DNA of 64,000 nucleotides. It comes from Acidobacteriota bacterium (GTDB lineage Bacteria > Acidobacteriota > CAIWXX01). Position 1 is the stretch's first letter, and the number at the start of each line of letters is the position of its first letter. Location of the stretch: NCBI GenBank assembly GCA_040755995.1, contig JBFMAF010000027.1, forward strand, positions 17,392-81,391. The letters run 5' to 3'. Below the pieces are notes generated by a model, which saw only the letters and a list, made by a program, of their open reading frames with translations, had not been told where the DNA came from and ran no database searches. Below, piece after piece: positions 1,859 through 21,004 of the stretch. A program made the translations under genes and the position numbers.

Positions 1859-1874
1859 TGGCACGCAATTTGCA
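1859..1874 (+). promoter_or_regulatory. sigma54 (RpoN) -24/-12 promoter
   Basis: TGGCAC-GCAAT-TTGCA, exact consensus, 50 nt upstream of the cytochrome ATG. Confidence 0.8.
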
Positions 1875-1923
1875 AAACATTGCGGAGTAGCTTATTTCGT
1901 TTCGCTGGACGGAGAAGGGACAA

Positions 1924-3036
1924 ATGGACATGGCAGATTACAGACTAATCACCGGCATCACGATGGCGTCCGTCTCCCTCGCGACCGTGCTCATCGCGGG
2001 CACCACTGAGCGCACCCCGGCAGGCACCACTGAGCGCACCCCGGCATCTAGGCCCGGCTCCGGCAACCTCGGACCGTTGCCCCAAGCAGAGGCGGCTTTC
2101 ACATCGCACGCTCCCTATGAGACCGGCGACTGCGGACTCTGCCACAAGCAATCGGATCCGCGTGCCTCGGGAGCTCTCGCCCGCCCCGTGGCCGAGCTGT
2201 GCCTGGGCTGTCACGAAGACTTCAAACAGGTGTTGAGCAGGAGGTTCGCGCATGCGGCGGCCGAAGACAGCTGCGTGAACTGTCACAACCCGCACAATTC
2301 GAAACAGCCGAAGCTGCTCCTCGCAGACCCGAAGGGCCTCTGCCTAGGCTGCCACGACTCCATCAAAGATCTGGCGTTGCGCTCGAAGGTCGTGCACGGT
2401 GCGCTGTCTACCGGCGGCAAGTGCGCGGGCTGCCACGACCCCCACGGGTCCGAGATTGAGCATCTCTTGCTCCGGCTCCCCTTCGACCTCTGCGTGAAGT
2501 GTCATGCCCAGGACGGTCTTCTCGACACGCAGGGGAAGGCTCTTACGAACATGAGGAAGCTGCTGGACGAGAACTCCGTCTGGCACGGACCGGTGAGCAA
2601 CAAAGATTGTACTTCATGCCATGACCCGCACGCCGGATCGCTGTTCCGGATGCTCGCCGCGGAGTATCCGCCGGAGTTCTACGCGCCGTACGATCCGAAG
2701 CTCTATGCGCTCTGTTTCACCTGTCACAACGAGCAGATGCTGGCGACCCCGGAAACCACCACACTCACCCAGTTTCGCGACGGCGCGCAGAATCTGCACT
2801 ACCTGCACGTGCGCCGATCGGAGCGAGGGAGGACGTGCCGGGCCTGCCATGAGGTGCACGCGTCGAAGCAGCCTCATCAGATTCGCGACGGCGTGCCCTA
2901 CGGATCAGGTGGATGGATTCTGAAGACCAACTACCGAGAGACACCGGAGGGCGGGGTCTGCGAGAAGACGTGTCACGCGACCAAGACCTACGTCAACACG
3001 GCGCCTTCACCTGGGACTCGGCCATCGACGGAGTGA
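1924..3036 (+). CDS. multiheme cytochrome c, ~10 hemes (paired-CXXCH / cytochrome c3-like)
   Basis: 9 CXXCH plus terminal CEKTCH (CX3CH); repeated CxxCHxPH...LL...LCxxCH; hydrophobic N-terminal signal. Confidence 0.9.
   Translation: MDMADYRLITGITMASVSLATVLIAGTTERTPAGTTERTPASRPGSGNLGPLPQAEAAFTSHAPYETGDCGLCHKQSDPRASGALARPVAELCLGCHEDFKQVLSRRFAHAAAEDSCVNCHNPHNSKQPKLLLADPKGLCLGCHDSIKDLALRSKVVHGALSTGGKCAGCHDPHGSEIEHLLLRLPFDLCVKCHAQDGLLDTQGKALTNMRKLLDENSVWHGPVSNKDCTSCHDPHAGSLFRMLAAEYPPEFYAPYDPKLYALCFTCHNEQMLATPETTTLTQFRDGAQNLHYLHVRRSERGRTCRACHEVHASKQPHQIRDGVPYGSGGWILKTNYRETPEGGVCEKTCHATKTYVNTAPSPGTRPSTE
1999..2046 (+). repeat. perfect in-frame 24-bp tandem duplication (GTTERTPA x2)
   Basis: GGCACCACTGAGCGCACCCCGGCA occurs twice in tandem. 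Confidence 0.9.
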
Positions 3037-3038
3037 TC

Positions 3039-3899
3039 ATGGAGCCAAGACTGGCTCGAATCGGCGCCCGGGCTGGGATCCTGCTCTGGTCGTGTTCGAC
3101 TATCCACCCAACGTGTGCTTCCTCGTTTGCGAACATGCCGGTAGGAACGATCATCGAGGATGTGGAGCTTCGCGGCCCGGACGGGGCAGAGCGCCACTTG
3201 CTGGAGGCGGACAGCATCAATGTGTTCATGTTCGTGAACCCGGAGCAAGAGCATTCCCTGTCAGCGGTGCGCGCGATGGCAGAGCTTCGAGAAGAATTCG
3301 CAGGGAAGCCGGTACATTGGGGCGTAATCGTCACTGACAGAGCGCCGCAGGCTGCGGTGGAATCGATGACAGGGCGCGGCAACGCGTCAATACCCGTGCT
3401 CTTGGACAAAGGGGATGTGCTCTACGGACGGTTTGGCGTCGCGCTCTTCCCGGTCGCCGGCATTACCGACCGGTCTTCCAGACTCGCCTTCTACGAGCCT
3501 TTTTCGAAAGTGCACTACCCGACCGTGATCCGGGCAAGGATCAGGTACCTGCTTGGCGAGATCGATCAAGCGGAGATGATGCGGGCTGTTGCGCCTCCAG
3601 CCGAGGCGGAGGTCGCTGATGCTGACGTGGCCCGGCGATTCCTCAAGCTTGCCGAGATGCTGTACCAGTCTGGAAAGTACGAGAAGGCAGCCGAGTCAGT
3701 CCGTCACAGCATCGAGAAAGACGAGACCCTTGTCGCGTCGCATGTGCTACTCGGTAGGGTCCTCGCCGCCCTGGGCAGATGCGAGGAGGCGATCGAGGCA
3801 TTTGAGCGGGCGAAGCAGCTGGACCCGGGGGATCCCGGAGCAACCGGCCCACGCCCGGATTGTACCCAGTCGACGGGCGGCGGTCGTCTCACGCCCTGA
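3039..3899 (+). CDS. redoxin-like (AhpC/TSA fold) plus TPR protein
   Basis: Start reassigned to ATG 3039 just after the cytochrome stop; PVLLDKGDVLYGRFGVALFP resembles the redoxin cis-Pro region; C-terminal TPR pattern (SHVLLGRVLAALGRCEEAIEAFERAKQLDP). Confidence 0.6.
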   Translation: MEPRLARIGARAGILLWSCSTIHPTCASSFANMPVGTIIEDVELRGPDGAERHLLEADSINVFMFVNPEQEHSLSAVRAMAELREEFAGKPVHWGVIVTDRAPQAAVESMTGRGNASIPVLLDKGDVLYGRFGVALFPVAGITDRSSRLAFYEPFSKVHYPTVIRARIRYLLGEIDQAEMMRAVAPPAEAEVADADVARRFLKLAEMLYQSGKYEKAAESVRHSIEKDETLVASHVLLGRVLAALGRCEEAIEAFERAKQLDPGDPGATGPRPDCTQSTGGGRLTP

Positions 3900-4087: not shown

Positions 4088-4846
4088 TCACTTGAGGTGA
4101 CAGGTGTTGCACAATGCGCTGTTCTGATTCGGCTTCCTGAGGAAGGGGAAAACGTCGGGATCGTGCACATTGTGACAGGAAGGGCATTCGATCTTCCCTC
4201 CGTACAGCTTCACATCGTATGACGAGCTGCCGCCCCACCCCGTCATGGGGTTATCGGGCGCAGTGAAATCGGGATCCAATGCAGGAGTCGGGTAGATCAT
4301 TCCTATGGGATGGTCATTCCGGAGGTCAGTTCCCAAGTATGACATCAGTGCGTCGTGTCCCCAGGTTCCGTCGTGGCACATACTGCAGGTCGCGCCAGAA
4401 GCGGGATCAGGGTCCATCCTCCAGTGGGCAGGCGCTGCCGGAATGCCGTACCACGGACCACCCAGGTTGGCGCCGCTGCCGGGGGCGTTCAGTACCTCAT
4501 CGACAGCGATCGTTCCATCGTGGCACGACAGGCATGCGAGAGAGTATCCACCGGGCTGACCGGGGGTTGAATCCATAGTCGGGCTCGAATACAAGGTATA
4601 CGACTGGCTGGGCGTCCTATGATTCCACAGCGGCGCATCGATCAGGGTAGTCGCGCCGTGCGGCGTATGGCAGTACACGCAGACCTCCCCGTAGTTGTTC
4701 ATCGTGTTGGGATGGATGAGGTTGGCCGGTATGACATGCGTCAGGTCATGCTTGGTACCGACTACTGTTCCGGAGAAAATCGGCACAGCGGCCACAGCCG
4801 CAACCGCCGAGACCACCAGCCACAGACGCATCCGGTTGGCTCTCAT
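4088..4846 (-). CDS. OmcE-like cytochrome c, pentaheme variant
   Basis: Signal peptide then TKHDL, CVYCHTPH, PLWN, YSSPTM, CLSCHDG, extra CSMCH, LGTDLRNDHP, ECPSCHNVH, PFLR, LCNTCHLK; start 4846 or 4831. Confidence 0.85.
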   Translation of the reverse strand: MRANRMRLWLVVSAVAAVAAVPIFSGTVVGTKHDLTHVIPANLIHPNTMNNYGEVCVYCHTPHGATTLIDAPLWNHRTPSQSYTLYSSPTMDSTPGQPGGYSLACLSCHDGTIAVDEVLNAPGSGANLGGPWYGIPAAPAHWRMDPDPASGATCSMCHDGTWGHDALMSYLGTDLRNDHPIGMIYPTPALDPDFTAPDNPMTGWGGSSSYDVKLYGGKIECPSCHNVHDPDVFPFLRKPNQNSALCNTCHLK

Positions 4847-5343: not shown

Positions 5344-7614
5344 ATGACTTGCGCCGTGAACCGGTCCAGACGCCTCGCCACTGGCGGACTTCCGCTCGTC
5401 GGTCTCACCCTGATGATCGCGTGGCTTTCGTTTCCAAGAAGACCCAGCGTGTTCCCGCTGGACGATGCGTATATCCACCTATCATACGTCAAGAACCTAG
5501 CGGAAACGGGGGCACTGTGTTTCAATCCGGGTGAACCAAGCATCGGCACATCGAGTCCTCTGTGGGTAGCATTCCTGGTCCCATTCTACCTGGCCGGACT
5601 CGACATGTACTGGACCGTGCAGCTCACAAACCTCTTCCTTCTTGGTCTACTGAGCTATCTGGCGATGGACATCACGAGGACCATCGCCGTTTCGTTCTTC
5701 CAGACTGAGGGCGAGGCCATGCCCTGGTCGTTCCTCGGCGGTCTCCTGCTTGTTCTGAACGGGAACGTCCTCTGGTTCGCTCTGAGCGGCATGGAAACGA
5801 TGCTCTACCTCTGCACCTGTCTTCTCGCGATCAAGCTCTACCTCCTGCGAGGATTCGATTACATCACCGGCTTGACATGCGGTCTCGTGTTTCTGGCTCG
5901 TGAGACTGGAGTGGTACTGGGACTGGTCTTCCTAGTGGCCGACTCTTCGAGCAGGCGATTCTTGCGGCTCTTCAGAGGAGCAATGGCAATGCTGCTTGTC
6001 ATATCTCCTTATCTTTGGCTGACGGTGCGGGTTACAGGCGGATGGTTTCCCTCGACGGCGAGAGGCAAGCTGGCCTCCTATGTCGACGGAGGGCTCGATT
6101 GGCAACGGATACCCAGGACCGATCTACATGATGACCTCGCAATCCGAAACCTGATCGAGAAGCGGGTATTCGAGGAAGACCCAACGTCTCGCGATTATGT
6201 GCTCTTTTGCAGAGACGTGAAGACTGAGTCCGACCTGAGCCAGCGTCTGCGGGCCGCGGGTATCTCCGAAAGTGAGGAGTTCCTGGCTGAGTGGCGCCTC
6301 ACGCATCGGAATCACATATACTGGTATTTGAAGACGGTTCTTCTCTACCAGAAGTACCAGCCGCAGAACCTGCTGCTGATGGCAGTTCTGTGTGCCTGGC
6401 TCATTCATCTCATCTACACTTCCTCGCGGCGATGGCGAGAGACAAAGAAGCTCCTCACCGGTCGACTCGTGGGTTGTTCCGTGTTGATTGCATGGGGATT
6501 TCTGCATCTCTCGCTTCACGCGGTCGGCTTTCGCACTCTGCTTCATCACACCCGATACCTTGCTGACGAGTACCTCATCCTCGCCATCGCCGGATCGCTG
6601 GGTTTCATCTGGCTTCACAGACGATACACGCGCTCCGCGGCGCTCCTCGCCGGTGTCGCCCTCTTCACGAGTGCAGGCGGACTCTTCTACTGGCGGGACG
6701 TATATGCTCACGACATCAAGCATATGGATGACGTGTATGTTCGGATGGGAGACTGGATAGAGAGAAATACACCGGACGATGCCAGGATCGCAGCCTTCGA
6801 CATCGGGGTACTCCGCTATGTCGGGAATCGTTATACGATAGATCTGGGCGGACTAGTCGATGCAAACGTCGTTCCGTATCTTGCCAGGAGGGAGTGCGGG
6901 GAATATGTCCGCCAAAGAAGAGCCGACTACATTCTCTATTCTCGTAACCTCGAAGTTGACTACTTCACCGGCCTCTATCTGGCAGAGTACGAGGGAAGGA
7001 GACTGCTCAAGCAAGCACCAGTCGTTCATTTCGATACGTCACAATACAGTGCCCCCACTCTTACTCATTCTTTTCGATTGGATTTGACCCGGATCGCTGG
7101 GTGGCTCGACCCAACGATCGACGGGATTCAGCGGGCTTTTTGCTATGATGGACGTCCATACCAGGTGATCAACGAAACCGTCGATAATAGACTCGAGTTC
7201 GTTGGATACTCCGTGGACCAGCGGGCGATCGAGCTCATTCCTTACTATCCCTACGGAACAAACGTGGTCTTCTTCTTCAGAGCTCGCCAGCGCCTGAGCC
7301 ACCTCTACTGGGTGCACCTGGCCCTGTTTGATTCCGAAGGCCGCGTCTTCTATCTGTTCAGTCACATACCCACCCACAACTTGCTCCCCTATGACCAGTG
7401 GCCGGTAGGTCAGCTAGTTCAGGAGCACCACATACTGTTCGCTCCGACCCCAATGCCGAGAGCGAGGTTCCACATCAGGGTGACTGTCAACAGGACCCCT
7501 TTCCTCGATAGATCTCGCCTCGGTGAGCTTGCCTGGTACGAACTCGGAACTTACGAGAATCTCGGGAACGCACTTCATCCAATGGACCATCAAGAACTGA
7601 TGTGCTTTCCCTGA
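5344..7614 (+). CDS. multi-pass membrane glycosyltransferase-like protein (GT-C type)
   Basis: DDAYI after TM1, FNPGEP..GTSSPLW, SGMET, many TM helices, IDLGGLVD and a soluble C-terminal domain ending W.VGQLVQE. Confidence 0.75.
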   Translation: MTCAVNRSRRLATGGLPLVGLTLMIAWLSFPRRPSVFPLDDAYIHLSYVKNLAETGALCFNPGEPSIGTSSPLWVAFLVPFYLAGLDMYWTVQLTNLFLLGLLSYLAMDITRTIAVSFFQTEGEAMPWSFLGGLLLVLNGNVLWFALSGMETMLYLCTCLLAIKLYLLRGFDYITGLTCGLVFLARETGVVLGLVFLVADSSSRRFLRLFRGAMAMLLVISPYLWLTVRVTGGWFPSTARGKLASYVDGGLDWQRIPRTDLHDDLAIRNLIEKRVFEEDPTSRDYVLFCRDVKTESDLSQRLRAAGISESEEFLAEWRLTHRNHIYWYLKTVLLYQKYQPQNLLLMAVLCAWLIHLIYTSSRRWRETKKLLTGRLVGCSVLIAWGFLHLSLHAVGFRTLLHHTRYLADEYLILAIAGSLGFIWLHRRYTRSAALLAGVALFTSAGGLFYWRDVYAHDIKHMDDVYVRMGDWIERNTPDDARIAAFDIGVLRYVGNRYTIDLGGLVDANVVPYLARRECGEYVRQRRADYILYSRNLEVDYFTGLYLAEYEGRRLLKQAPVVHFDTSQYSAPTLTHSFRLDLTRIAGWLDPTIDGIQRAFCYDGRPYQVINETVDNRLEFVGYSVDQRAIELIPYYPYGTNVVFFFRARQRLSHLYWVHLALFDSEGRVFYLFSHIPTHNLLPYDQWPVGQLVQEHHILFAPTPMPRARFHIRVTVNRTPFLDRSRLGELAWYELGTYENLGNALHPMDHQELMCFP

Positions 7615-7624
7615 AGCGACCCCA

Positions 7625-8974
7625 ATGAAGAAACTCAGGATCGTCGCTGCCGCGCTTTGTTGGCTTGGCTCCACCGGTTCGGCTCCGTTGCACTGTGCCG
7701 CACACCCCAATGTCGTGCTGATAATCATCGATACCTTACGCGCGGATAAGCTCGGGTGCTACGGGTCCAGGGAAGACACTTCTCCGGAACTGGACGGATT
7801 GGCAGAAATGGGAATTCAGTTCACCAAGATCTATGCTCAGTGCAGCTGGACCCGTCCTTCAGTGGGTTCCCTGCTCACATCGCTCTACCCTCGGTCAATC
7901 GGCCTGTATGGTGGTCATCCTGGGGAGAAGCTGCATGACTGCTACTCGACTCTACCCGAGATCCTCAAGGCCCGTGGGTACTACACCCTCGGCATTACTG
8001 CGAACCCGACCATCAACACCATCTTCAATCTTGATCAGGGGTTCGATGAGTACATCGACAGCGATGTGGTCTGGGATTGCATGCTGGGGCTGGAAAAGGG
8101 CAAGAAGGAGTACAAACCGGATGTTGTCCCGCTCCCGAATTCAGAGCGTATCTTCAGGACAGTCCTGGATAGGGCCAGGGCCATCTCGAAGAGGCCCGTT
8201 TACCTACAGATCAACGTCATGGAGGTTCACGAAGGTTGGCGCTTGATCAGGCCGGAGTTCAAGAACATCTTTGCGAACCGCCCATTCCACTGGTACCTTG
8301 AGGCCGTCAGACAGACATCGCTTGACGTGCACCGCTTCGTCACGGAATGGCTGTCCATCCCCGGGTTTCAGGACACCTTGTTTGTGATCACGAGCGATCA
8401 TGGGCAGGGACTGGATGACCACCCACATGTTGCGAACTCACAGGATCACGGGTATCTCTTGTATGAATCCCAGCTTTCGGTGCCCCTCATTCTCTACCAT
8501 CCCTCCGGTGCGTGGGAGCGGGGGAAGAAGATTGACCGACCTGCGAGGTTGATGGATCTCATGCCCACGATCCTGGACTACCTTGATATCCCCTGCCCTG
8601 ATAATATCCAGGGGATTTCCTTGCTGGAGTTGATATCGCATGGGAGCTCGTCTGTGAGCTTGCCGGAGTACTTCGTGTCTGAGACGTATTTTGACGGGAG
8701 TGAGAAGCTCGCTGTCTACTCCGGACGATGGAAGTATATTGAGAATCGAGATTCTCAAGAAGGCGTGAACAAGGTTGAATTGCAGCCGATCGGAGTCAAA
8801 GAGGACGGTGCACTGACCGACCAGATTCGCGAGAACGACGGAATCCGCCGGGCGATGCGGGCATTTCTTGAATCATGGGAGTTGTCTTTCCCCAGGGCGG
8901 AGGGTACTCCCGCCGATGGGAAGTTCAGGGAGGAGGAGATTCAACAGCTGAAGTCTTTGGGCTACCTGGACTAG
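7625..8974 (+). CDS. sulfatase / alkaline-phosphatase superfamily protein
   Basis: PNVVLIIIDTLRADKL, CSWTRPSVGSLLT, ITSDHG, HGYLLYE, DLMPTILD and C-terminal LKSLGYL; signal peptide. Confidence 0.85.
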   Translation: MKKLRIVAAALCWLGSTGSAPLHCAAHPNVVLIIIDTLRADKLGCYGSREDTSPELDGLAEMGIQFTKIYAQCSWTRPSVGSLLTSLYPRSIGLYGGHPGEKLHDCYSTLPEILKARGYYTLGITANPTINTIFNLDQGFDEYIDSDVVWDCMLGLEKGKKEYKPDVVPLPNSERIFRTVLDRARAISKRPVYLQINVMEVHEGWRLIRPEFKNIFANRPFHWYLEAVRQTSLDVHRFVTEWLSIPGFQDTLFVITSDHGQGLDDHPHVANSQDHGYLLYESQLSVPLILYHPSGAWERGKKIDRPARLMDLMPTILDYLDIPCPDNIQGISLLELISHGSSSVSLPEYFVSETYFDGSEKLAVYSGRWKYIENRDSQEGVNKVELQPIGVKEDGALTDQIRENDGIRRAMRAFLESWELSFPRAEGTPADGKFREEEIQQLKSLGYLD

Positions 8975-9067: not shown

Positions 9068-10828
9068 GTGGCGCACCAGCCGAGTCGCGACTGTAGGTGG
9101 GGAGTCGTCAGTCCCGTGGTGAATCGCAAACCCGTTGCCGGGAGCACGAATCGCATAACCCACGTCCAGCGCAACGTTTCCATATTGTGGGTTGTCATGC
9201 TGTCAATTGGAGCGTACTACCCTGGTCTCCGCGGTGGGTTTGTCTGGGATGATTGGACTCTGATTGTCGAAAACGATTCTGTCAGATCGTGGAGCACGCT
9301 GAGAGAGAACCTCACCTCAGACTTCTTCTACTTCGGCCAGTCGCCTTTGCTGAGCCAGAAGCGGGGTTACTATCGCCCCCTGATAACGCTTTCCTACATG
9401 GCGGACTACGCTCTGTGGAAGCTCGACCCACGCGGCTTTCATTTCACGAACATGGTGCTACACGCCGCGGCCTCGGCCTCGCTCCTCCTGGTGCTGATCC
9501 GACTGCTTTCTGGACAACCGTGGATCGCGGTTCTGGCTGCTGCGCTCTTCAGCGTACATCCGATCCACACCGAATCGGTCAGCTGGATCTCCGGGCGAAC
9601 CGACGTCATGGCGGGCCTGTTCTTCTTCGCTGCGCTCTACTCCTACCTCCGCGCGCACCCACCGGACCGATGCGGCGCTCAGAAAGCGCCCGGATTATGG
9701 ACCGGCTGCGCCGTGCTCTCTTTCGTAATGGCAGTCCTTAGCAAGGAGACCGCGATCGTGCTGCCCGCCGTCCTCGCGACATACGAGTACTGTCTGGGCC
9801 CATTCGATCTTGAGAGGGGATGGCGAGCCTCATTGAGAAGGCTGAGCCCGTACGCTATTGTGGGCATCGCCTATCTGATCGTGCGCTTCATCGTGCTCGG
9901 TGTGAGGGCGCCAACTAACGAGTGGGTGGCGGCCCAAGGCACATGGGCGATCTCCGTGACTTCGCTCAAAGCCATCGGAATCTACGCATCAAAGCTGGCT
10001 GTTCCGTGGCCGCTGTGCGCCTACTATCAGGCGCCGATAACGCGTGACCTGCTTCAAGTCGGTGTCTTGATCCCCTTGGTCGTCCTTGTGGGCCTGGGTA
10101 TCTTCTTCTGGCAGCGCGGAAGAGGGCGCGGATTGCTTCCCCTTTCGTTCCTATACTTTCTCCTGACGCTGCTTCCAGTCTCGAACATTGTTCCGATTGG
10201 CGCCCCCAAGGACATGGGCTTCCTGATCGCAGAGCGGTTTCTGTACGTTCCCTCGGCAGCGTTCTGCGTTCTCGCTGCATGGGCGCTGAGCCGGGCGGCC
10301 GGCGTTCTGCCACGAGGGCCCTGGGCGCCGCATCTGGCGGGCGCTGCTTTTGCAGTCCCTGTGCTGGCCGCCTATCTCGTGCTCACGATTGCTAGAAGTT
10401 CGGTGTGGCACGATGAGATTACATTCTACACGGAGACGTTGCGGCACGCCCCCGATGCCGGTCTGCTCCACTATGTCCTCGGAATTGCCTACTGGGAGGC
10501 CGGCGAAAAGGTGCGTGGCAAGGCCGAGATGGAGGAGGCATTGCGGTGCAATCCGGCGGCATCGTGGGCTCACAACAACTTGGGAAACATGTTGTTCGAA
10601 GATGGGAACGTTGCCGGGGCGGTTCAGCAATGGGGGGCCGCAGTGCGAACCGATCCGTCGAACTGCCAGGCGTGGTTCAACCTGGCCAGAGCGCTGGACC
10701 GGTGGGGACTATCTTCACAGGCCGCCGTTGCATACCGATCTTTTCTCAAGAGCGCCCCGACCTCGCTGGGCGTCTACATCGCGATGGCAAAGTCCCGCCT
10801 GAGAGCGCTCGGCCAGGACACTCGCTGA
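9068..10828 (+). CDS. TMTC-like membrane glycosyltransferase with C-terminal TPRs
   Basis: GFVWDD, YYRPL, HPIHTESVSWISGRTD, LSKE, AERFLY, then TPRs (AHNNLGN, AWFNLA); exact start uncertain. Confidence 0.8.
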   Translation: MAHQPSRDCRWGVVSPVVNRKPVAGSTNRITHVQRNVSILWVVMLSIGAYYPGLRGGFVWDDWTLIVENDSVRSWSTLRENLTSDFFYFGQSPLLSQKRGYYRPLITLSYMADYALWKLDPRGFHFTNMVLHAAASASLLLVLIRLLSGQPWIAVLAAALFSVHPIHTESVSWISGRTDVMAGLFFFAALYSYLRAHPPDRCGAQKAPGLWTGCAVLSFVMAVLSKETAIVLPAVLATYEYCLGPFDLERGWRASLRRLSPYAIVGIAYLIVRFIVLGVRAPTNEWVAAQGTWAISVTSLKAIGIYASKLAVPWPLCAYYQAPITRDLLQVGVLIPLVVLVGLGIFFWQRGRGRGLLPLSFLYFLLTLLPVSNIVPIGAPKDMGFLIAERFLYVPSAAFCVLAAWALSRAAGVLPRGPWAPHLAGAAFAVPVLAAYLVLTIARSSVWHDEITFYTETLRHAPDAGLLHYVLGIAYWEAGEKVRGKAEMEEALRCNPAASWAHNNLGNMLFEDGNVAGAVQQWGAAVRTDPSNCQAWFNLARALDRWGLSSQAAVAYRSFLKSAPTSLGVYIAMAKSRLRALGQDTR

Positions 10829-11029: not shown

Positions 11030-11704
11030 CTGGTCCGTCGAATCGCCTTCTTTCTCGCGGCTCTCTTGGTCGCCGTCGCGCAAGGCCCGTCCACCAGGGC
11101 GGACAGCGTCGTGGGATCCAAGCATGATCTGAGCACCGCCTGGACACCCGAGCCCTGTGCATTCTGCCATACTCCGCACTTCGCCAATACGAGCATCGAC
11201 GCCCCGCTGTGGAACCGGACCATCGGGAGCGTCACGTTCACGCCGTACCAGAGCCCCACGATGGACACGGTGTGCCCGAGCGTGCCCAATGGGCGGTCGC
11301 TCGCATGTCTAGGTTGCCACGACGGAGTCCTTGCCAATAACGACAAGCATGATCTGGTGAATGCCCCCGGGCCCGGCGGCATGCCCGACACGTCATCGTG
11401 GCCCAATTGTTACAGCTGCCACCCGGACATCTACGGCGATCCGGCGATCACCTGGATCGGCACCGATCTACGAGATGATCATCCCATCTCGATGACATAT
11501 CCGACCCCCGCTCAGGATCCGTTCTTCAATACTCCGCCTGATCCGATCATGGGATGGGGAGGCGCCGGCGCAGGGGACGTAAAGCTGTACGATGGCAAGA
11601 TCGAGTGCGCATCGTGCCACAATGTGCACGATCCCGCCTATGTGCCATTTCTGCGCAAGCCCAATAGCAACAGCGCGCTCTGCCTGACCTGCCACATCAA
11701 GTAG
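11030..11704 (+). CDS. OmcE-like cytochrome c, pentaheme variant (probable CTG start)
   Basis: SKHDLS, CAFCHTPH, PLWN, CLGCHDG, extra CYSCH, IGTDLRDDHP, ECASCHNVH, PFLR, LCLTCHIK. The ORF track starts at 11066; an in-frame CTG at 11030 follows GGAGG and restores a full signal peptide. Confidence 0.85.
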   Translation: MVRRIAFFLAALLVAVAQGPSTRADSVVGSKHDLSTAWTPEPCAFCHTPHFANTSIDAPLWNRTIGSVTFTPYQSPTMDTVCPSVPNGRSLACLGCHDGVLANNDKHDLVNAPGPGGMPDTSSWPNCYSCHPDIYGDPAITWIGTDLRDDHPISMTYPTPAQDPFFNTPPDPIMGWGGAGAGDVKLYDGKIECASCHNVHDPAYVPFLRKPNSNSALCLTCHIK

Positions 11705-13583: not shown

Positions 13584-14578
13584 CGGCTCTCCTTCAGGTA
13601 CTCATATACCTGAATCCTTCTGTTGGCCGAGTCGGCGACGCAGATCCGGTCGTCTTGAATCGCGATTCCGGTTGGCAGCCAGAGATCCCCCTCTCCTGAA
13701 CCAGAACCGCCGAAGAAGAGCAGGAGCCTCCCCGATTCATCGAAAATCTGTACGACGTCGTGCAGCCCCTCGACAACGTAGATGTTCCCGTCGCTATCGA
13801 CGGCGATTCCCTTGGGGCGGTTGAAGTCGCCTGAACTGTCGCCCAGCTTTCCGAACGACGATATGTACCGGTTCTGCGCGTCGAAGATCTGCACGCGGAA
13901 ATTCATGCTGTCGCAAACGTAGAGCCGCCCGCCCGGTCCCGTCGCGATATTGGTCGGGAAGTTGAATTCGCCCGGCCCTTTGCCGTGGGCACCGAACTGC
14001 CCTACTATCTTCCCGTCCCTGGTGACCGACACGATCTTGTTGGCCAATGTGTCTACCACGCGAAGCTGATCTCCCACCACGGCGAGACCCGTGGGTCGCC
14101 GGAAGCCGGCCTCGGCCCCTATTGTCCACAGTTCCCGGCCTTTGGGGTTGAGACATACGAGCCGCCTCCGGGCCGAATCGGTGACGTACAACCGGTCGCT
14201 TCCAGCTGCCACACCGATGAGCGAATCACCATCGATGCGCATGTTGGAGTAAGCGTTCTTCGGGAGGTCGTAGACGTGCAGGCATCGTCCGAACGTGTCG
14301 GCGACAAAGAGCCGGCCGCCCGGTCCCAGACAGACGCCGTAAGGCTGAGTCATCACGTACTGCTTCTTTTCACCTGATATCAGTCCCCACAGCTTGCTCA
14401 GAAAGGAAGGCTTGCCTCCCGCTTCGGCCGGTGTGATAGAGCGGACGAACCGAATGCGCGGGTGTTCGGGTGGTTCGGGCCAGACCGTCTCCGCGGCGAC
14501 GCTTCGTGCGAGGATGAGCGCCATTAGTACGGGCAGCCGGCGGCAGCCGGCCATCCTCTTGCGGCTCATGGCGCTCAT
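13580..14578 (-). CDS. NHL-repeat (6-bladed beta-propeller) protein
   Basis: VWPEPPEHPRI leader; repeats FNFPTNIA, FNRPKGIAVD, LWLPTGIA; 4-bp overlaps with both neighbours. Confidence 0.9.
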   Translation of the reverse strand: MSAMSRKRMAGCRRLPVLMALILARSVAAETVWPEPPEHPRIRFVRSITPAEAGGKPSFLSKLWGLISGEKKQYVMTQPYGVCLGPGGRLFVADTFGRCLHVYDLPKNAYSNMRIDGDSLIGVAAGSDRLYVTDSARRRLVCLNPKGRELWTIGAEAGFRRPTGLAVVGDQLRVVDTLANKIVSVTRDGKIVGQFGAHGKGPGEFNFPTNIATGPGGRLYVCDSMNFRVQIFDAQNRYISSFGKLGDSSGDFNRPKGIAVDSDGNIYVVEGLHDVVQIFDESGRLLLFFGGSGSGEGDLWLPTGIAIQDDRICVADSANRRIQVYEYLKESR

Positions 14579-16626
14579 ATGAGGAATCCGAACCTGCGAG
14601 TAACCCGAAAGAGTATCTGATTGCCGACGAAGCCTGTGCTGGTCTGTTTCTCTGTGACGATCTGGTCCAGAGTCGAGTAGCGATGTTCGACGCCGAATGT
14701 GAAGAGTCGCAACTGGTAGTCCAGCTTGGTGTAGATCCGGAACCCCTGCTGGTCCAGATACCCTGGCAGTGCGATCGCTTCGCGCCGCGCGGAAACCGAC
14801 GTCCGAAGACCGCCGAAGAAGATCCCCGCGAATTCGAGGCCGAGGTACCGGTTGCGATCGATCCCCGCGTCCGTCCGGTTTCGGAAGGCGCCGGCGGAGA
14901 CGGCCAGCGTGCAGAGCCGGCCAACGTTGACCTGAACGTCGGCGTTCAAAGCACGGGCCTCGTAGTCAGTCAGAGTGTCGCCCTGGCCGCGCGTCGTCTC
15001 CGACCGCTCCCAGCTCACCTGAAGGGTCGTCTTCCAGAACGTCTGGCTTCGCGCCGAAGCTCTGACTCGCTCGAGATCGTAGTTGCCTAGACTGAGCAGC
15101 TCATCGGTCGCTTTGCCGCGTTCGTAGCTCGCGTTCACATTCATGATCTTGAGCGCGCCTGTGGACATGTTGGCTCTTCCGTTCCACGATGTGCTCACCC
15201 CATCCCTGCCGCTGACGTCGCGGTTCCAACCTCTTCCTACATCATACCCCACAACCGCCTGGATAGAACGGAGTGGCAGGTTGTAGGTAACACCGGCTCC
15301 AACGGTGCGCATGTCCACGCTGGAGTCCCCCGTGTCGGTCTTCTGGTTGCGGCGGCCATACCCGGCGCGGGCATTGAGACCCAAACCACGGACCGGGAAG
15401 TAGGTGTTCGTTGTCGACACGAACACCGCCCCAGTATCAGCCGTTGCCGACCTTCCCAGTTCCAGGCTCGTCGCGACACTCGTCTGCAACTTCTCGGCCG
15501 TCTGATAGGACAGGTTGGCTGTCGCGTAGTAGAGCCTGTACCCGCCTGGAGTTTCTGGCTGGAGCCCCCCGTCACCGGTCTCAGTCATATGCGGCGGGAT
15601 GTCAAAGAGCGAGTAGGTATCGAGGTATCCGGCCTTGACCTGGCCCCTCGTTCTCGGATTGAGCGTTGCGAGCAGCTCATAGCTGAGGTCATTGTACCTC
15701 GTCCTGAACGCAGTGCTGAGCTCATTGTCATAGGCCTGCCTGTGGAATCTGAATGTGCTCCGCGTCCGCTTCGTCTCTTGTGTGGCTGTAAGATCGAGAT
15801 TTGTACCCCGTTGAAGGACCTTGTCGGAACCAGCTTCCTCCGTATCCGAGTCCCTGCGATAGGCCAGGTGTATCATGGGCAACTTCTCCTCGTCCAAGTG
15901 CCAGTTGACGCCGTAGGATGACAGCCGGATCTTCACGTCGGGGTACGTGGCCCCGGGCGGGAGCGGGATTCCGCCTCGAATGGGGCTGGACGTTGGGTAG
16001 TTGCCCGTCTCGGTCCCGAACGTGCGCCGCGCGAAAATCGAAAGGGGAAAAGGCCGAGAAGGGAAGAAGTTACCGTTGAGTTTGAATCCAACATCGGATG
16101 CGCCGCTGTCATCGCCGGCAAGCGACAGGCCTGTCTTCCTGAAAATAACGCCCGCGGTGTACTGGAGGAAGCGGGGATCCCAGGCGACCGATCCGTAGTT
16201 CAAGTCGTAGCTCTGGACGAAGGATCGATTCACAGATCGGGTCCCATCAGTGTCGAAGACCGAGTGCCCGAAGCTCCAATCGGCACTGCCATTCAGGTAC
16301 TGAGCATCGAGCCGGCGGGGCCAGCCCACGAGAGCGATGACGACGGCAACCAAGAGCCAGGCGTGCAACCACTCAAGAGCACGGCACAGTCGCGTGACCG
16401 CGGCCGGAGGAGGAGCGCAGACGCGAGCTACAGTCAGCCCACCGCCCGGCACACGTGAGGCATCCTCCGGCAACGAATCCGAGCGAGAACGCTTGAGGCT
16501 GAGAAGAGGTTGCCATCGGGAGCGGTGCGTCATTGGCCCCGAATTCCCACGGTTTTCACTCCCGACCTTCGACCGTGGACTCTCGACGCGAGGCTGCGCC
16601 GCGCCCGCACCAACCGCGGCCTGCAT
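14575..16626 (-). CDS. probable outer-membrane beta-barrel protein
   Basis: Signal-like segment WLLVAVVIALVGWPRRLDA followed by ~575 aa of alternating aromatic/hydrophobic beta-strands rich in G/S/T/Y, ending ILFRVTRRF; true start is likely downstream of 16626. Confidence 0.7.
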   Translation of the reverse strand: MQAAVGAGAAQPRVESPRSKVGSENRGNSGPMTHRSRWQPLLSLKRSRSDSLPEDASRVPGGGLTVARVCAPPPAAVTRLCRALEWLHAWLLVAVVIALVGWPRRLDAQYLNGSADWSFGHSVFDTDGTRSVNRSFVQSYDLNYGSVAWDPRFLQYTAGVIFRKTGLSLAGDDSGASDVGFKLNGNFFPSRPFPLSIFARRTFGTETGNYPTSSPIRGGIPLPPGATYPDVKIRLSSYGVNWHLDEEKLPMIHLAYRRDSDTEEAGSDKVLQRGTNLDLTATQETKRTRSTFRFHRQAYDNELSTAFRTRYNDLSYELLATLNPRTRGQVKAGYLDTYSLFDIPPHMTETGDGGLQPETPGGYRLYYATANLSYQTAEKLQTSVATSLELGRSATADTGAVFVSTTNTYFPVRGLGLNARAGYGRRNQKTDTGDSSVDMRTVGAGVTYNLPLRSIQAVVGYDVGRGWNRDVSGRDGVSTSWNGRANMSTGALKIMNVNASYERGKATDELLSLGNYDLERVRASARSQTFWKTTLQVSWERSETTRGQGDTLTDYEARALNADVQVNVGRLCTLAVSAGAFRNRTDAGIDRNRYLGLEFAGIFFGGLRTSVSARREAIALPGYLDQQGFRIYTKLDYQLRLFTFGVEHRYSTLDQIVTEKQTSTGFVGNQILFRVTRRFGFLI

Positions 16627-16649: not shown

Positions 16650-17633
16650 CTAGTGACTCTTCGCGAGGGCCGGGACAGCGGGGCTCTCCTTGACATCATA
16701 GACTTCGATGCGCGCGGCGGAGCGCAGTCGCCGAGTCCACGCGTCGTTCATCTCCGAGCAGCGCTTCGACGTGAGATCGGTCTTGAGCTTCTCCTTGACT
16801 TCGTCGAAGGTCTTCTGCTGGGCCGGGCGGATCTCGGCCAGCCGGAACAAGTGGAAGCCATAGATGCTCTCGACTACATCGCTCAGGTCCCCGGGCCTCA
16901 TTTGGGCAAACACCTTTTCGAACTCCTCCGCCATGCTCCCGCGATGAATGAACCCCATATCACCGCCCTTGTCCTTGCTGGGATCGGTCGAGTACTTCCG
17001 CGCGAGATCCTCGAAGGAGACCCCGGAACGGATCTGCTTCAGCAGATCCGCTGCTTTCGTGCGAGCCTTCTCCCAGTCAGCCCTCGGCGCTGCAGGAGCT
17101 ACTGAGATCGTGATGGCGAAGAGATGCAGCTGCTCTGGGGTGACAAATCGTTGAGGATTCGACTTGTAGAACTGGGCCGTCTCTTCATCGGTCACAGCGC
17201 ACTTGAGACCCACCGCAATGTCGTAGGCCCTCTTCACCAAGAGGACCCGCTCGATGTTACGCCGGAGATCATCAAGCTTCGCCCCGGATTCCTTCATGGC
17301 TTTTTCGAATGCCTGCTTGCTGCCGTAGTGGGCAACGAGCCGGTCGATCCCGCGACTGACCTCCTCTTTCGGCACCTTCAGGCGCTGCCTTACCGCATCC
17401 TGATACTGCAGCTCCTCGTCGATCACGTTCTGGAGCGCCTTGCTCCGGATCTCAGCGAGCTTCTCCACACTCACGTTGCGGTGAAAAGAGGCGATCGGCA
17501 TCAACGCGTTCATGGCCGAAGTAAGCCTGTCCAGGGCGATGGGCGCACCGTTCACACGTGCGACCACGACGGGAGGTGTCGCCTCTCCCGAGGACGGCAG
17601 CGCCGTCAACAACAAGAGAGCAATGAAACGCAC
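16650..17633 (-). CDS. SurA/PrsA-like parvulin peptidyl-prolyl isomerase
   Basis: VVARVNGAPI, FEDLARKYSTDPSKDKGGDMGF, VVESIYGFHL; start reassigned to GTG 17633 (signal peptide VRFIALLLLTALPSSGEA). Confidence 0.9.
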   Translation of the reverse strand: MRFIALLLLTALPSSGEATPPVVVARVNGAPIALDRLTSAMNALMPIASFHRNVSVEKLAEIRSKALQNVIDEELQYQDAVRQRLKVPKEEVSRGIDRLVAHYGSKQAFEKAMKESGAKLDDLRRNIERVLLVKRAYDIAVGLKCAVTDEETAQFYKSNPQRFVTPEQLHLFAITISVAPAAPRADWEKARTKAADLLKQIRSGVSFEDLARKYSTDPSKDKGGDMGFIHRGSMAEEFEKVFAQMRPGDLSDVVESIYGFHLFRLAEIRPAQQKTFDEVKEKLKTDLTSKRCSEMNDAWTRRLRSAARIEVYDVKESPAVPALAKSH

Positions 17634-17659
17634 AGCACTAATATGCCACAAAACAGACA

Positions 17660-17684
17660 GGGAGTGAACTGTCAGTTCACTCCC
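17660..17684 (-). terminator. strong hairpin after the omcE-like gene (terminator/attenuator or mRNA stabiliser)
   Basis: 12-bp perfect inverted repeat GGGAGTGAACTG-N-CAGTTCACTCCC followed on the minus strand by TGTCTGTTTT. Confidence 0.65.
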
Positions 17685-17704
17685 CTCCTGGACCCCGATC
17701 AGAA

Positions 17705-18448
17705 CTACTTGATGTGGCAGGTAGTGCAGATCGCACTTGTGGCGTTGGATTTGCGAAGGAACGACCCCTGCGTGTTGTTGTGAGGATTGTGGCAGCTTCC
17801 GCACTCGACCGTTGCCGATGCCGCCGCCGCCCCGTAGAGGGGCAGATCGCCGGTGCCGGACGCCACGTAAATCTTGGACCCGACCTGAGTCTCGGTGACG
17901 AACTCAGTCGGCGTGGCGAGTCGCGCCGTCTGGTAGATGATCGTTATAGGGTGGTCGTTGCGAAGATCGGTCCCCATCGCGGGGATGCCACCGGTCATCA
18001 GGTTGTTGGACCCTGGAGCGACGTTCCCATAGGTGGCCTTCGCCGCCCCCTGTACCGTGAATGCAACGGCCGGGCCGAAGGCGGCGCCGTTGAGGTTGAC
18101 AAGAACGTCAACCGCGATGCTCCCGTCGTGGCAACTCATACAGGCTCCCGAAACACTGCCGGCGATCTGCGCGGAACTCGGCGCGGCAGCGTCCATGGTC
18201 GAGCTGCTGTAGACCTGATAAGTCGATGTCACGTTGTTCCGGTTCCAGAGTGGAGCCGTCGAGTTCAGGTTGGCACCGTGCGGCGTGTGACAGAAGACGC
18301 ACGTCTGCCCGTTGATGGATGCGTTGCCGTTTCTGAGTGCCGAACCGGCGCTGAGATCATGAGGCCCCGTGGCGATCGTTGCCTGTGCGAACCCCGTCGC
18401 GGCCGCCAACAGCAGTGCAGCGGCAACCGTTAGAATCTGTCTCCTCAT
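17705..18448 (-). CDS. omcE: OmcE-like tetraheme cytochrome c (candidate nanowire subunit)
   Basis: Signal peptide, PHDLS, CVFCHTPH, PLWNRN, YSSSTM, CMSCHDG, MGTDLRNDHP, LPLY, ECGSCHNPH, FLR, ICTTCHIK: same motif order as I recall for Geobacter OmcE; strong RBS GAGGAGG. Confidence 0.8.
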   Translation of the reverse strand: MRRQILTVAAALLLAAATGFAQATIATGPHDLSAGSALRNGNASINGQTCVFCHTPHGANLNSTAPLWNRNNVTSTYQVYSSSTMDAAAPSSAQIAGSVSGACMSCHDGSIAVDVLVNLNGAAFGPAVAFTVQGAAKATYGNVAPGSNNLMTGGIPAMGTDLRNDHPITIIYQTARLATPTEFVTETQVGSKIYVASGTGDLPLYGAAAASATVECGSCHNPHNNTQGSFLRKSNATSAICTTCHIK

Positions 18449-18525
18449 TATTAGTCCTCCTCTCATGGCGGGCTTACAGCACCACGAGCCACACGTGCCT
18501 GGAAGCCGCCTTCGCCCAGTATCCA

Positions 18526-18696: not shown

Positions 18697-19779
18697 TCAG
18701 TGGCCCAAGGACTCAGCCGCCGATTCCCGAATGTACTGAAAAACCTGCACCCGGGAATTGCCCTGGTCCGCGACATAGATGCGGTCCTGATCGTCCACGA
18801 AGAGCCCGGCCGGCAGGATGAACTGTCCGGGTCCGCGCCCTGGCAAGCCTACAAAGAGGAGAATCGCCCCCTGGGAGTCGAATATCTGGAAGTTGTTGAA
18901 GGATGCGTCCGCGACGTAAATGTGGCCTTCGCTGTCCACGCCTACTCCCTTCGGCCGGTTCAGACATCCGGGAGTATCGCCCTGCTTGCCGACCTCACGG
19001 ATGAAATCGCCCTCGGGACCAAACACCTGTATTCTGAAGTTGAGCGTGTCGGCAACGTAGAGCTGGCTGTGACGGTCGACGAAGATGTTGGTAGGGAAGT
19101 TGAACTTGCCTGGGTCGACACCGCGCTCACCGATGGTCCTGATGAAGCTCCCGTCAGCGCTCGAGTAGCACAGCACGATGTGCTTCTTCGAGTCGGCAAC
19201 GTAGAGCCGCTTGAGCTGCCTGTCGATGGCCATTCCAGACGGGTTTTCGAGCTCGCCTTCACGCCCGATAGCGATGGCGAGACCCCCATCGGGTCCATAG
19301 CCGAACACCCGGTTTAGAGTCGCATCAGCCACGAAGACCATGCCTTCATCATCCACCGCCACTCCGATCGGCTTGGCAAGCCTCCCTTGCCCTTCCTCGC
19401 CCACGAAGTCCACGTCTCGTGCGACAGGATCGAATCGAAAGACCCGGCGCGCCGCCGTGTCCGTCACGTACACGCGTCCAGTGACGTCGGCTGCCACGCC
19501 ATACGGCTTCACGAGCACTTCGATCGCGCGTGGCTGCTCAGGGCCAAGCAGCATGGACTTCCACCTGGACTGTTTCTGGCCGAAATCGCCCACGCCGCGA
19601 TACGTTGTGAGGTACTTGATACGCGGGCGTTCGGGGGGCAGCGGCCATACCAGGTCTGTGGGTTTGGCCGAGGGCTGCTTGGGCTTCGCGGGACCGCAGA
19701 CATCCAGCAGGCACAACCACGCAGTCACCACAACCAGAAGCCCGACAGCACGCCCAGCTCGGTCACTCATGGTGCCCAT
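18697..19779 (-). CDS. NHL-repeat (6-bladed beta-propeller) protein
   Basis: VWPLPPERPRI leader; repeats KPYGVA, KPIGVAVD, FNFPTNIFVD, LNRPKGVGVD; paralogue of 13580-14578. Confidence 0.9.
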   Translation of the reverse strand: MGTMSDRAGRAVGLLVVVTAWLCLLDVCGPAKPKQPSAKPTDLVWPLPPERPRIKYLTTYRGVGDFGQKQSRWKSMLLGPEQPRAIEVLVKPYGVAADVTGRVYVTDTAARRVFRFDPVARDVDFVGEEGQGRLAKPIGVAVDDEGMVFVADATLNRVFGYGPDGGLAIAIGREGELENPSGMAIDRQLKRLYVADSKKHIVLCYSSADGSFIRTIGERGVDPGKFNFPTNIFVDRHSQLYVADTLNFRIQVFGPEGDFIREVGKQGDTPGCLNRPKGVGVDSEGHIYVADASFNNFQIFDSQGAILLFVGLPGRGPGQFILPAGLFVDDQDRIYVADQGNSRVQVFQYIRESAAESLGH

Positions 19780-19791
19780 CGGACATCACCC

Positions 19792-20862
19792 CTACATCTT
19801 GTGGCACTTCTGGCAAACGCCCTCCCCCGGCGCGATTGGGAACGCCAGCAGTTTGGGCGAGGCAGTTCCATGGGGCACATGGCAGCTCAGGCAGTCCAGC
19901 GCCTTTCCGTTTTCGGATGGATGGATCGGGCCCGAGACCGGATGGCCGAAAATCGGGTGCCCTGTGCCGTTCTTGTCAAGGTTGATCTGATGAACCTTCC
20001 GCAAGTAAGACCCCGGCACAGAGACGCCGGGCATGATCTCGATCGAGACTGCGGGCAGCGACCCCGCCGCCGCCGGCGACTGGTGACAAGCAAGGCACAC
20101 GGCGTTCACATCGCCGCGCAGGCGCGCGGCGGAGTTGGACGCATGCGGATCATGACAGGCCTGGCACCCCGGGTCTCGTGCCGCTGCATGACTGGACGCC
20201 ATTTTCAGTTCCGCTGCAACATCCTCGTGGCAATTCAGGCAGAGTGCGGTCTCAGGCTCAAGCAGGTGCGCTGGGTATCGAGATGCGTGTGGGCTGTGGC
20301 AGGACACACAGCCTTCCGACTCTATCACCGGGTGGACGACCTTCGCGCCGGCGAAACGCTTCAGCAGATCCTCGTGGCATGCAGCACAGATGTCCTGAAC
20401 ATTCTCCGCCACGAGCTTGACCTTCCCGTTCTCGGGGGGCGCGTGACAGGAATCGCATTGACCTCCCGCCATCGGCGCGTGCGTGTATTCGAGCAACAGC
20501 GCATCGTTTTTCGATCCGTGTGGCGCGTGACACGTTGTGCAGGAAGCCGCTGCGATCGGTTGCGAACCATGTTTCGTCGCCAACTCCTTGTCGTTGAGGT
20601 CGTGGCAGGCTCCGCACAGCTCGACGAAGGTGCCGGCAAGGTACGGTGGATTCCTTCCTTTCGTCAGATCATGGCAGACCGTACAGCCCTCTTCGGTGGC
20701 CGCATGCGGACCGGCGGCGATCTCGGCCGCGACGGTGTCATGACAGCTCAGGCAGAGTTCCTTGGTCAGTTTTTCCCCCTCAAGGTCAGGGTGCTCCGCA
20801 GTCAGACCCCGCACTGGCATCGAACAGAGGGCGGTTGTGGCAATCAGGACAGCGAGCCGCAT
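19792..20862 (-). CDS. dodecaheme cytochrome c (paired-CXXCH type)
   Basis: 12 CXXCH motifs counted; start reassigned to ATG 20862 (signal peptide MRLAVLIATTALCSMPVRGLTA); the ORF track start is 20961. Confidence 0.9.
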   Translation of the reverse strand: MRLAVLIATTALCSMPVRGLTAEHPDLEGEKLTKELCLSCHDTVAAEIAAGPHAATEEGCTVCHDLTKGRNPPYLAGTFVELCGACHDLNDKELATKHGSQPIAAASCTTCHAPHGSKNDALLLEYTHAPMAGGQCDSCHAPPENGKVKLVAENVQDICAACHEDLLKRFAGAKVVHPVIESEGCVSCHSPHASRYPAHLLEPETALCLNCHEDVAAELKMASSHAAARDPGCQACHDPHASNSAARLRGDVNAVCLACHQSPAAAGSLPAVSIEIMPGVSVPGSYLRKVHQINLDKNGTGHPIFGHPVSGPIHPSENGKALDCLSCHVPHGTASPKLLAFPIAPGEGVCQKCHKM

Positions 20863-20988
20863 CCGGTTCCAGCTATCCGGCCCGGCCCCCGGTAGGCCGC
20901 GCGGCCCCATCCTCCGCGAGCCAGTCGATGGGCACGTCATCTCAGCCACCACCGGGTCCATCCTGAGTGCGCCATCGACCCATTATAC

Positions 20989-21004
20989 TGCAAGAAGGCT
21001 GCCA
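20989..21004 (-). promoter_or_regulatory. sigma54 -24/-12 promoter
   Basis: Minus strand TGGCAG-CCTTC-TTGCA upstream of the dodecaheme gene. Confidence 0.7.

Follow-up and report, generated by a model that had tools for sequence, protein, structure and literature searches.

How is an extracellular nanowire of OmcE-type cytochromes ended, and how is it connected to the cell that exports it? Nanowire secretion, ending, and connection to the periplasm are stated as open in PMC13712944, and a locus from an Acidobacteriota bacterium raises the question anew. It lies at positions 1,859 to 21,004 of the window, i.e., the whole analyzed stretch of 64,000 nt (GenBank assembly GCA_040755995.1, contig JBFMAF010000027.1, positions 17,392 to 81,391 of the forward strand), which belongs to a genome of 7.7 Mb. 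The locus encodes six multihaem cytochromes with a total of 45 CxxCH motifs (9, 5, 5, 10, 4, and 12 in gene order) and three atypical haem motifs (CX3CH in a decahaem cytochrome, CX7CH and CX3CH in the protein labeled E3), which reproduces the count of an earlier reading of the bare sequence (the original prediction). The four paralogues with an OmcE domain, labeled E1 to E4, and a hairpin behind E4 are:

4088..4831, minus strand: E1, five-haem OmcE-domain protein whose inserted CxxCH is flanked by His on either side (7TFS match, E 9.7e-25)
11030..11704, plus strand: E2, five-haem OmcE-domain protein of the KHDL-insert subtype, with exactly 5 His outside the haem motifs and CTG as the probable start
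11760..13583, minus strand: E3, fusion of an OmcE domain (approximately residues 25-207) with an 8-haem extension, candidate for a terminal subunit
17659..17685, minus strand: 12-bp hairpin with a T-rich tail directly 3′ of E4, likely an attenuator or mRNA stabilizer
17705..18448, minus strand: E4, tetrahaem OmcE homologue with exactly 8 His and 42% identity to OmcE, likely the major filament subunit

Its genes place the locus in the omcE gene-cluster family, as a member from Acidobacteriota. Our preferred reading, to which we give an even chance, is that several kinds of OmcE subunits are assembled here into an extracellular haem filament, with E4 as the shaft, E1 and E2 as minor or alternative subunits, and E3 as a single end piece. 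Filaments, the co-assembly of the subunits, and their glycosylation are thus what we infer for this locus.

The original prediction had assigned the paralogues to OmcE, and this assignment held in several comparisons. For E4, E1, and E3, the only PDB matches were 7TFS and 9YUQ, with E values of 1e-36 to 1e-19 (for E4, 2.3e-36 and 2.4e-33, respectively). 7TFS is the filament structure of Geobacter sulfurreducens OmcE, and 9YUQ is taken, from its name and chain count, to be the OmcE bundle of D. soudanensis. All four domains were 38–42% identical to a stored protein that is identical to 7TFS. The four haem motifs and four distal His were invariant in the alignment of E1 to E4, and the expected ordered signature was found in each of them, with departures in E3 (HNL and DVSNDHP) and E2 (CLGCHDG). 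Four open reading frames (ORFs) of the genome exceeded 160 bits with a hidden Markov model (HMM) of the OmcE domain, all of them at the locus, and the next best reached 58 bits. The evidence for the fold comes from E3, the only one of the four that was modeled singly: 7TFS was the sole significant Foldseek match of the model (E 5.8e-8, TM score 0.61 on the target). None of the structural outcomes named beforehand as contradicting the prediction, such as a fold unlike that of OmcE or the lack of a membrane barrel, was seen in the models of E3 and the barrel. The suspected lineage outside Geobacter is Acidobacteriota, as the genome contains 12 over-cutoff copies of the acidobacterial VWFA family TIGR03436, the nearest named relatives of E3 belong to Vicinamibacterales, and E1 has an 82% identical orthologue in G001, a genome of the same family named Acidobacteria.

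E4 is likely the high-copy, major filament subunit. Like OmcE it contains exactly 8 His, 4 of them outside the motifs, and it ends two residues past haem 4. E1 and E2 also terminate two residues past their last haem, E4 and E2 have no spare His, and the bare OmcE-like C-terminal end is common to 99 of 110 stand-alone homologues. The bit score of E4 was 137 with canonical OmcE and 78 with the tetrahaem protein of L122, a second OmcE-like operon in G100, the genome that encodes the OmcE of 7TFS (its canonical omcE cluster is L120). The hairpin behind E4 suggests a high stoichiometry of this subunit. Hairpins with a z-score of −2 or below were found downstream of 23/32 stand-alone tetrahaem genes versus 7/64 NHL genes, a control that is biased because the DNA downstream of NHL genes is often coding.

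The other genes of the core and the dodecahaem gene next to it are:

13580..14578, minus strand: NHL beta-propeller directly upstream of E3 (PF01436)
14575..16302, minus strand: outer-membrane beta-barrel, mature part with the signal peptide upstream, 28 predicted strands, no plug
16650..17650, minus strand: SurA/PrsA-like parvulin peptidyl-prolyl isomerase (PPIase), PF00639 and SurA_N, start codon approximate, ORF to 17804
18697..19779, minus strand: NHL beta-propeller directly upstream of E4 (PF01436)
19792..20862, minus strand: dodecahaem cytochrome with 12 CxxCH, likely periplasmic

The core of six genes is encoded on the minus strand; the block as a whole is not one operon. The parvulin PPIase, the two NHL propellers, and a sulfatase that had been named from the sequence all passed Pfam (PF00639 with SurA_N, PF01436, PF00884). 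The anticipated beta-barrel was recovered in an AlphaFold2 model with a mean predicted local distance difference test (pLDDT) score of 89.7, 28 strands, and no plug. It is the genome's sole barrel of its family, and the genome's two best NHL matches are also located at the locus. Its alignment to the barrel of L122 reached 99.3% in hhalign; neither Pfam nor NCBIfam contained a family for it.

The barrel and the dodecahaem cytochrome bear on a rival reading without a long filament, in which the locus forms a conduit similar to Mtr or Pcc, E3 or the dodecahaem cytochrome runs through the barrel, and E4, E1, and E2 are surface terminals in the form of monomers or short oligomers. The best structural match of the barrel was MtrB (TM score 0.55, 8% identity), and the best PDB match of the dodecahaem cytochrome was chain A of the Mtr complex 6R2Q. 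Acidobacterial clusters are modeled as Mtr-like in a peat preprint (bioRxiv 10.64898/2026.05.27.727921), and the literature search turned up no acidobacterial filament. However, the ends of E4, E1, and E2 and the lack of spare His in E4 and E2 correspond to the open architecture of the solved OmcE filaments, the bare end prevails among the stand-alone homologues, and the hairpin hints at a high stoichiometry of E4. We therefore regard such a conduit as unlikely. The dodecahaem cytochrome was also considered as an open acceptor at which the filament docks. Its last two haem units align with those of the 8-haem gene upstream of NHL-omcE, and a bare OmcE-like C-terminus was found in 16/35 cytochromes upstream of NHL-OmcE versus 6/128 others. 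This candidate was rejected: a second His is conserved in the last unit, and with 15 non-motif His for its 12 haems the protein can close itself. The polarity of the filament cannot be set via this protein.

The candidate end piece, E3, has 607 amino acids and 12 haems, and at least 119 full-length relatives are 57–70% identical to it. Among 119 close and 59 diverse homologues, 16 non-motif His were conserved in at least 90%. A filament end that only donates a ligand requires 13 non-motif His for 12 haems, so by number the conserved His would suffice for such an end, the model of E3 being free of haem. In a tree of OmcE-type domains, the domains of all fusions together with six split forms formed one clade (67/146 rows, Shimodaira–Hasegawa-like approximate likelihood ratio test (SH-aLRT) 98), and the clade was recovered in a second tree (33/102 rows, SH-aLRT 96). 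Both trees are quick searches without bootstrap and with a sampling biased by the E3 query; the second was thinned to 102 rows and wrongly contains three 23-haem rows that are not OmcE. The distinct subunit classes that had been proposed thus appear as separate clades in both trees, and the fusion clade is old and separate from the other OmcE-type domains. The predicted complex of E4 with residues 25-289 of E3 scored 0.56 versus 0.00 for the best control, a weak value given without contacts: the mark used was reached by 116/157 solved complexes and 2/215 mismatches, and 18/157 solved complexes and both mismatches lie at 0.60 or below. Contacts agreed between runs by at least 86%, and the pLDDT of the partners was at least 78. 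This pass may stem from the likeness to the solved OmcE filaments.

OmcE consists of two doubled-CXXCH units. In the OmcS pattern, the first haem of a unit receives its ligand from the His that follows the first haem of the next unit; within the filament, the corresponding link would be made between subunits. The supply of one haem ligand by the neighboring subunit is documented for cytochrome filaments (PMC9473688, PMC12954529, PMC6584659). On this basis the following sequence of events can be proposed. The subunits would be exported by Sec and receive their haems from the maturation system of the genome. Their folding and escort would fall to the PPIase and to one NHL propeller for each class of exported subunit. 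E4 would polymerize head to tail, each subunit giving one His to the open haem of its neighbor, as in OmcE. E1 and E2, which keep both joining faces, could enter the same filament or form filaments of their own and add a haem on the solvent side. E3 would keep the donor His, and its own extension would occupy the site of the next subunit; it could join one filament end only, because the covalent third unit would fill the link internally while His56 stays free. The 8 extra haems of E3 would span the outer membrane within the MtrB-like barrel and receive electrons from the dodecahaem and decahaem proteins. The products of the GT-C genes (for glycosyltransferases of the C type) and of the sulfatase gene would decorate the filament surface, probably on E1.

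We mildly favor the base over the tip as the place of E3, because 8 haems suffice to cross the outer membrane, the unplugged barrel needs a cytochrome, and the last module of E3 resembles the end module of a likely periplasmic decahaem family. By analogy with MtrAB, an unplugged barrel of 28 strands would indeed require a resident cytochrome. The alternative is that E3 is the outer tip, which would be exported first, cap the distal open haem, and contact a mineral, humic, or partner-cell acceptor with its extension, the dodecahaem cytochrome then residing in the barrel. In its sequence, E3 has a signal that looks cleavable and neither a lipid nor a membrane anchor; like the major subunit, it has its own NHL gene, which is found directly upstream of 65/66 fusions. 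A tip could also make use of the three conserved His in excess of 13, and other OmcE paralogues directly precede very large and variable cytochromes of 17–61 haems. Those paralogues, however, belong to a clade distinct from the fusion, and both the decahaem-like last module and the open barrel argue for a protein at the membrane. We consider a tip possible but somewhat doubtful. The paralogues in question are found in Desulfuromonadia (L124, L126, L130, L135, L103, L104, L108), where a long NHL protein, an OmcE-like tetrahaem protein, and a 17- to 61-haem cytochrome occur together; these modules form a separate clade and are possibly an adaptor with a payload.

E1 and E2 are likely minor or alternative subunits of the preferred composite filament, with one extra side haem. 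Their fifth CxxCH is an insert in the variable loop that separates haem 2 from the DHP motif; the length of OmcE and the four-haem core are retained. Five CxxCH were present in 109/119 relatives of E1, and the insert contained a His in all 98 relatives with a parseable insert, in 97 of them before the motif. E1-like and E2-like proteins are two subtypes, of which the window has one each. With their four core His and their bare C-terminus intact, neither shows a sequence feature that would bar polymerization. The probable start codon of E2 is CTG (11030-11032), because an in-frame stop directly precedes it and a GGAGG lies five bases upstream; the first standard start would remove most of the signal peptide. 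An inverted repeat at 11705-11759, between the converging E2 and E3 genes, is a probable bidirectional terminator.

The remaining genes of the locus are all on the plus strand:

1924..3036, plus strand: decahaem cytochrome (9 CxxCH and one CX3CH), likely periplasmic, homologous to the cytochrome that comes first in the omcE cluster
3039..3899, plus strand: protein with a signal-peptide-like N-terminus and C-terminal tetratricopeptide repeats (TPR, Pfam), accompanying the decahaem gene
5344..7614, plus strand: polytopic membrane protein, probable GT-C glycosyltransferase (a lead only, from Atlas neighbors; no Pfam match)
7625..8974, plus strand: sulfatase-family protein (PF00884, E 4e-35), at the same position in G001
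9068..10828, plus strand: membrane protein with a TPR tail, probable GT-C, presumably TMTC-like, with a homologue in the omcE glycosylation cluster

The arrangement of these genes raises the further possibility that only the core operon functions as proposed, and that E1, E2, the GT-C/sulfatase block, and the decahaem gene pair are independent neighbors, i.e., alternative homopolymeric wires or an unrelated glycosylation system. The genes are not co-transcribed: E2 is convergent with E3, E1 and the GT-C block diverge, and the gene pair for the decahaem and TPR proteins converges on E1. In G001, the five-haem paralogues are spread over five contigs in varied contexts; one of them adjoins the GT-C–sulfatase–GT-C block and another precedes a GT4/methyltransferase cluster. 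The orthologue of E1 lies beside the same GT-C block, but E1, E2, and the core are on three separate contigs and unlinked, so that "self-contained", as the locus had been called, overstates the case. Outside the window, the block of E1, GT-C, sulfatase, and GT-C was found in G001 only. On the other hand, the single barrel of this family and the two matching NHL genes leave E1 and E2 without another dedicated route. Five-haem genes also head the core operon in L149 and L160, with further cases in L030 and L094, on unrelated contigs, and a homologue of the second GT-C gene is located behind omcE itself. By a hand count, 10/35 five-haem metagenome loci, many of them on short contigs, also contain an OmcE gene of the four-haem or fused kind. 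We judge the independence of these modules to be quite unlikely; it is compatible with filaments and differs from the preferred reading only with respect to co-assembly.

The claim of two GT-C-type transferases is less well founded. No Pfam match to a GT-C family was obtained, and NCBIfam likewise contained no family for the first of the two genes, but its Atlas neighbors include PMT_2 and DUF2079 proteins (score 0.95–0.97), and the second gene is 23% identical over 504 amino acids to a TPR-bearing membrane gene behind omcE. No GT2 or GT4 genes are present at the locus. Likely glycan densities are present on G. sulfurreducens OmcE, and because of these and of the homologue of the second GT-C gene in the omcE cluster, glycosylation of the subunits is plausible by analogy. 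The decahaem protein is 35% identical over 358 amino acids to L120:6513 and 40% identical to L122:3; its orthologue sits on the core contig of G001, and in L237 and L141 the TPR gene is again found downstream of it.

Several points weigh against the preferred reading. The assignment of the interface His in OmcE is extrapolated from the OmcS pattern. The AlphaFold2 model of E3 is weak (pLDDT 63.8, with model residues 185-318 below 50). E3 has 3 conserved His more than a donor-only end would need, and the 5 listed fusions of Geobacter type lack the His past the last haem. A split pair of OmcE domain and 8-haem module is encoded away from a barrel in two Desulfuromonadales genomes and falls outside the fusion clade. 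The barrel of the locus aligned to the canonical omcE barrel (L120:11517) with 11% in hhalign, over 77 N-terminal columns and with a single sequence. In addition, the role of cytochrome filaments in long-range transfer is disputed (PMC13194489).

The distribution of the relatives was analyzed next. Relatives of E3 were located at 74 genome loci, spread over Acidobacteriota, Nitrospirota, Bacteroidota, Planctomycetota, Calditrichota, and other groups, with the recurring order NHL, tetrahaem, PPIase or pentahaem, barrel, NHL, and fusion. L021 and L038-L043 match the window gene for gene. OmcE-type genes were present in 39 of 301 Acidobacteriota genomes searched and in 64 of 101 Desulfuromonadia genomes; 42-haem ORFs labeled 'E' are repeat-motif matches and were left out of these counts. 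That four paralogues are a unique layout was rejected, as most of the matching Desulfuromonadia genomes have 2–6 matches and G001 has 10. G100 itself contains the canonical cluster L120, the operon L122 with the order of the core, and a third module of NHL, tetrahaem, and 23-haem genes. A direct orthology of the locus to the canonical omcE operon holds only partly. The window is rather a mosaic, as far as can be read from the sequences: in E4 and the second GT-C gene it goes with the canonical cluster, in the barrel, the first NHL gene, and E3 with L122.

Some of these loci deserve mention in their own right. L072, L073, and L077 are from cultured Flavobacteriaceae (Gaetbulibacter aquiaggeris, Aestuariivivens spp.) and contain NHL, fusion, tetrahaem, NHL, 9-haem, barrel, and 9/10-haem genes. 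The contig of L038 is labeled Bifidobacterium breve, has an operon of Vicinamibacterales type, and groups there in the tree; this is probably a binning error. L218-L227, of the acidobacterial family f30, have ORFs of 42–43 haems among OmcE-like, PPIase, and NHL genes, with no match of the barrel HMM. The operon of G001 (L021:13524-20000, L237) is flanked by NrfD, iron-sulfur, and cytochrome genes, which are absent from the window and could form a quinol-oxidizing input.

The surroundings of the locus were also inspected. According to Pfam, its flanks contain a GH26 gene and GHL10/TPR genes, and a promoter scan yielded nothing above chance (3 sites versus 5.0 expected). A look for expression returned no sequencing run for 11010-21000 of the window. 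In the whole genome, 25 ORFs have at least three CxxCH, and two cytochrome c assembly genes lie on a contig different from that of the locus. The best NCBIfam matches at 34814-42946 of the window (minus strand) were 4-hydroxybenzoyl-CoA reductase and the dch/had/oah ring-cleavage enzymes, all below the cut-off, and the selenium/molybdenum gene yqeB lies in the same region; these genes likely degrade aromatic compounds anaerobically, which could supply electrons. At 44662-46347 (plus strand), the window encodes DNA topoisomerase VI subunit B. Three further regions were noted, the last two by reading ORFs. G000:C32:52143-56795 (plus strand) is a single ORF of 1550 amino acids with 60 CxxCH and a signal-peptide-like start, next to which no barrel or cytochrome gene was seen. 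G000:C43:139799-147553 has an MtrA-like decahaem gene followed by a probable barrel of 758 amino acids and a 19-haem cytochrome, and reads as a second conduit of Mtr type, separate from the locus. G000:C10:396176-403193 contains an Hmc-like block with a 16-haem cytochrome and membrane subunits.

How does the locus compare with known systems? The closest is the omcE cluster of G. sulfurreducens and D. soudanensis. In its minimal form it combines OmcE with a pair of multihaem cytochromes, a pair of beta-propeller lipoproteins, and a large barrel, and genes for glycosyltransferases and TPR proteins often come behind it (Petersen 2026, PMC13712944). The multihaem cytochromes, the two propellers, OmcE, and a large barrel have counterparts in the window, with probable GT and TPR genes nearby, and the core layout is therefore not new. 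The window additionally has the PPIase, the fusion of OmcE with 8 haems, and two five-haem paralogues. Its barrel is a distant relative of the canonical one at most, and the locus does not lie between purHDE-resB-ccsB and ffh, a synteny that is specific for Desulfuromonadia and that L120 fits. The main text of PMC13712944 lists five phyla for the cluster, Acidobacteriota not among them. It describes the ideal anchor as a protein with nine His and four haems, i.e., with one extra His that closes the open haem, and gives no tip candidate for OmcE operons and an anchor candidate only outside the cluster.

L122 shares the order of tetrahaem, NHL, barrel, NHL, and fusion genes with the window. Its fusion is 38% identical to E3 over 615 amino acids and belongs to the same clade, and the first NHL protein is 41% identical. 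In contrast to the window, it has a pentahaem gene in place of the PPIase gene and no five-haem OmcE variant. No paper on this operon was found.

A five-haem OmcE-like family of 'leaky' nanowires with an exposed extra haem has been predicted (PMC13712944, text to Fig. 5), and a common OmcE/P group with pentahaem homologues has been noted (PMC11492766). The predicted family shares the OmcE length, the fifth CxxCH, and the intact four-haem core with E1 and E2, which differ in that two subtypes stand beside a four-haem major gene and one barrel. The main text gives neither genomic contexts nor subtypes, and sequences like E1 and E2 may be contained in its set. The consulted parts of PMC12977616, PMC13591261, and PMC12133095 add nothing further on OmcE paralogues.

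EET1, a transcribed porin-scaffold-cytochrome cluster of peat Terriglobales (Fiorito, bioRxiv 10.64898/2026.05.27.727921), is likewise acidobacterial, with syntenic porin and multihaem genes and with OmcE-like proteins among the models presented (8–13 haems), and is transcribed in situ. It is read there as an Mtr-like conduit, and the main text offers no filament, five-haem, or terminal-subunit interpretation. The core order of the window is present in Terriglobales loci, and EET1 is probably of the same operon family.

With MtrAB (6R2Q), the locus shares a large barrel without a plug domain and haem chains of doubled CXXCH. MtrB has 26 strands, compared to 28 predicted here, and its identity to the barrel is low, as given above; Mtr includes neither OmcE-type subunits nor NHL genes.

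Taken together, earlier papers already cover this type of cluster, the five-haem class, and porin-cytochrome clusters of Acidobacteriota. New at this locus are the four subunit versions served by one barrel and a candidate for the end piece of the filament; the literature searched, which largely excluded subscription journals, yielded no report of a fused OmcE domain or of several subunit classes in one operon. The predicted five-haem family can thereby be placed next to a standard subunit and one export barrel, and the share of Acidobacteriota with OmcE-type genes bears on the anaerobic respiration of these abundant soil and sediment bacteria. A bolder version, in which we have clearly less confidence, takes the locus as the full parts list of a composite cytochrome pilus assembled in the manner of a chaperone-usher pilus. 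A four-haem shaft, two kinds of five-haem branches that would render an otherwise insulated wire leaky in places, and a fused 12-haem end that would anchor the filament and wire it through its own barrel would then be joined by one NHL escort for each subunit class. If this were true, an end piece conserved in Acidobacteriota, Nitrospirota, Bacteroidota, and Geobacter would explain how OmcE-type nanowires terminate and are connected to the cell. The fusion of OmcE with 8 haems is thus a concrete candidate for one end of a nanowire, and since it is present in the second operon of G100 and in cultured Flavobacteriaceae, it can be tested in a model organism and in existing strains.

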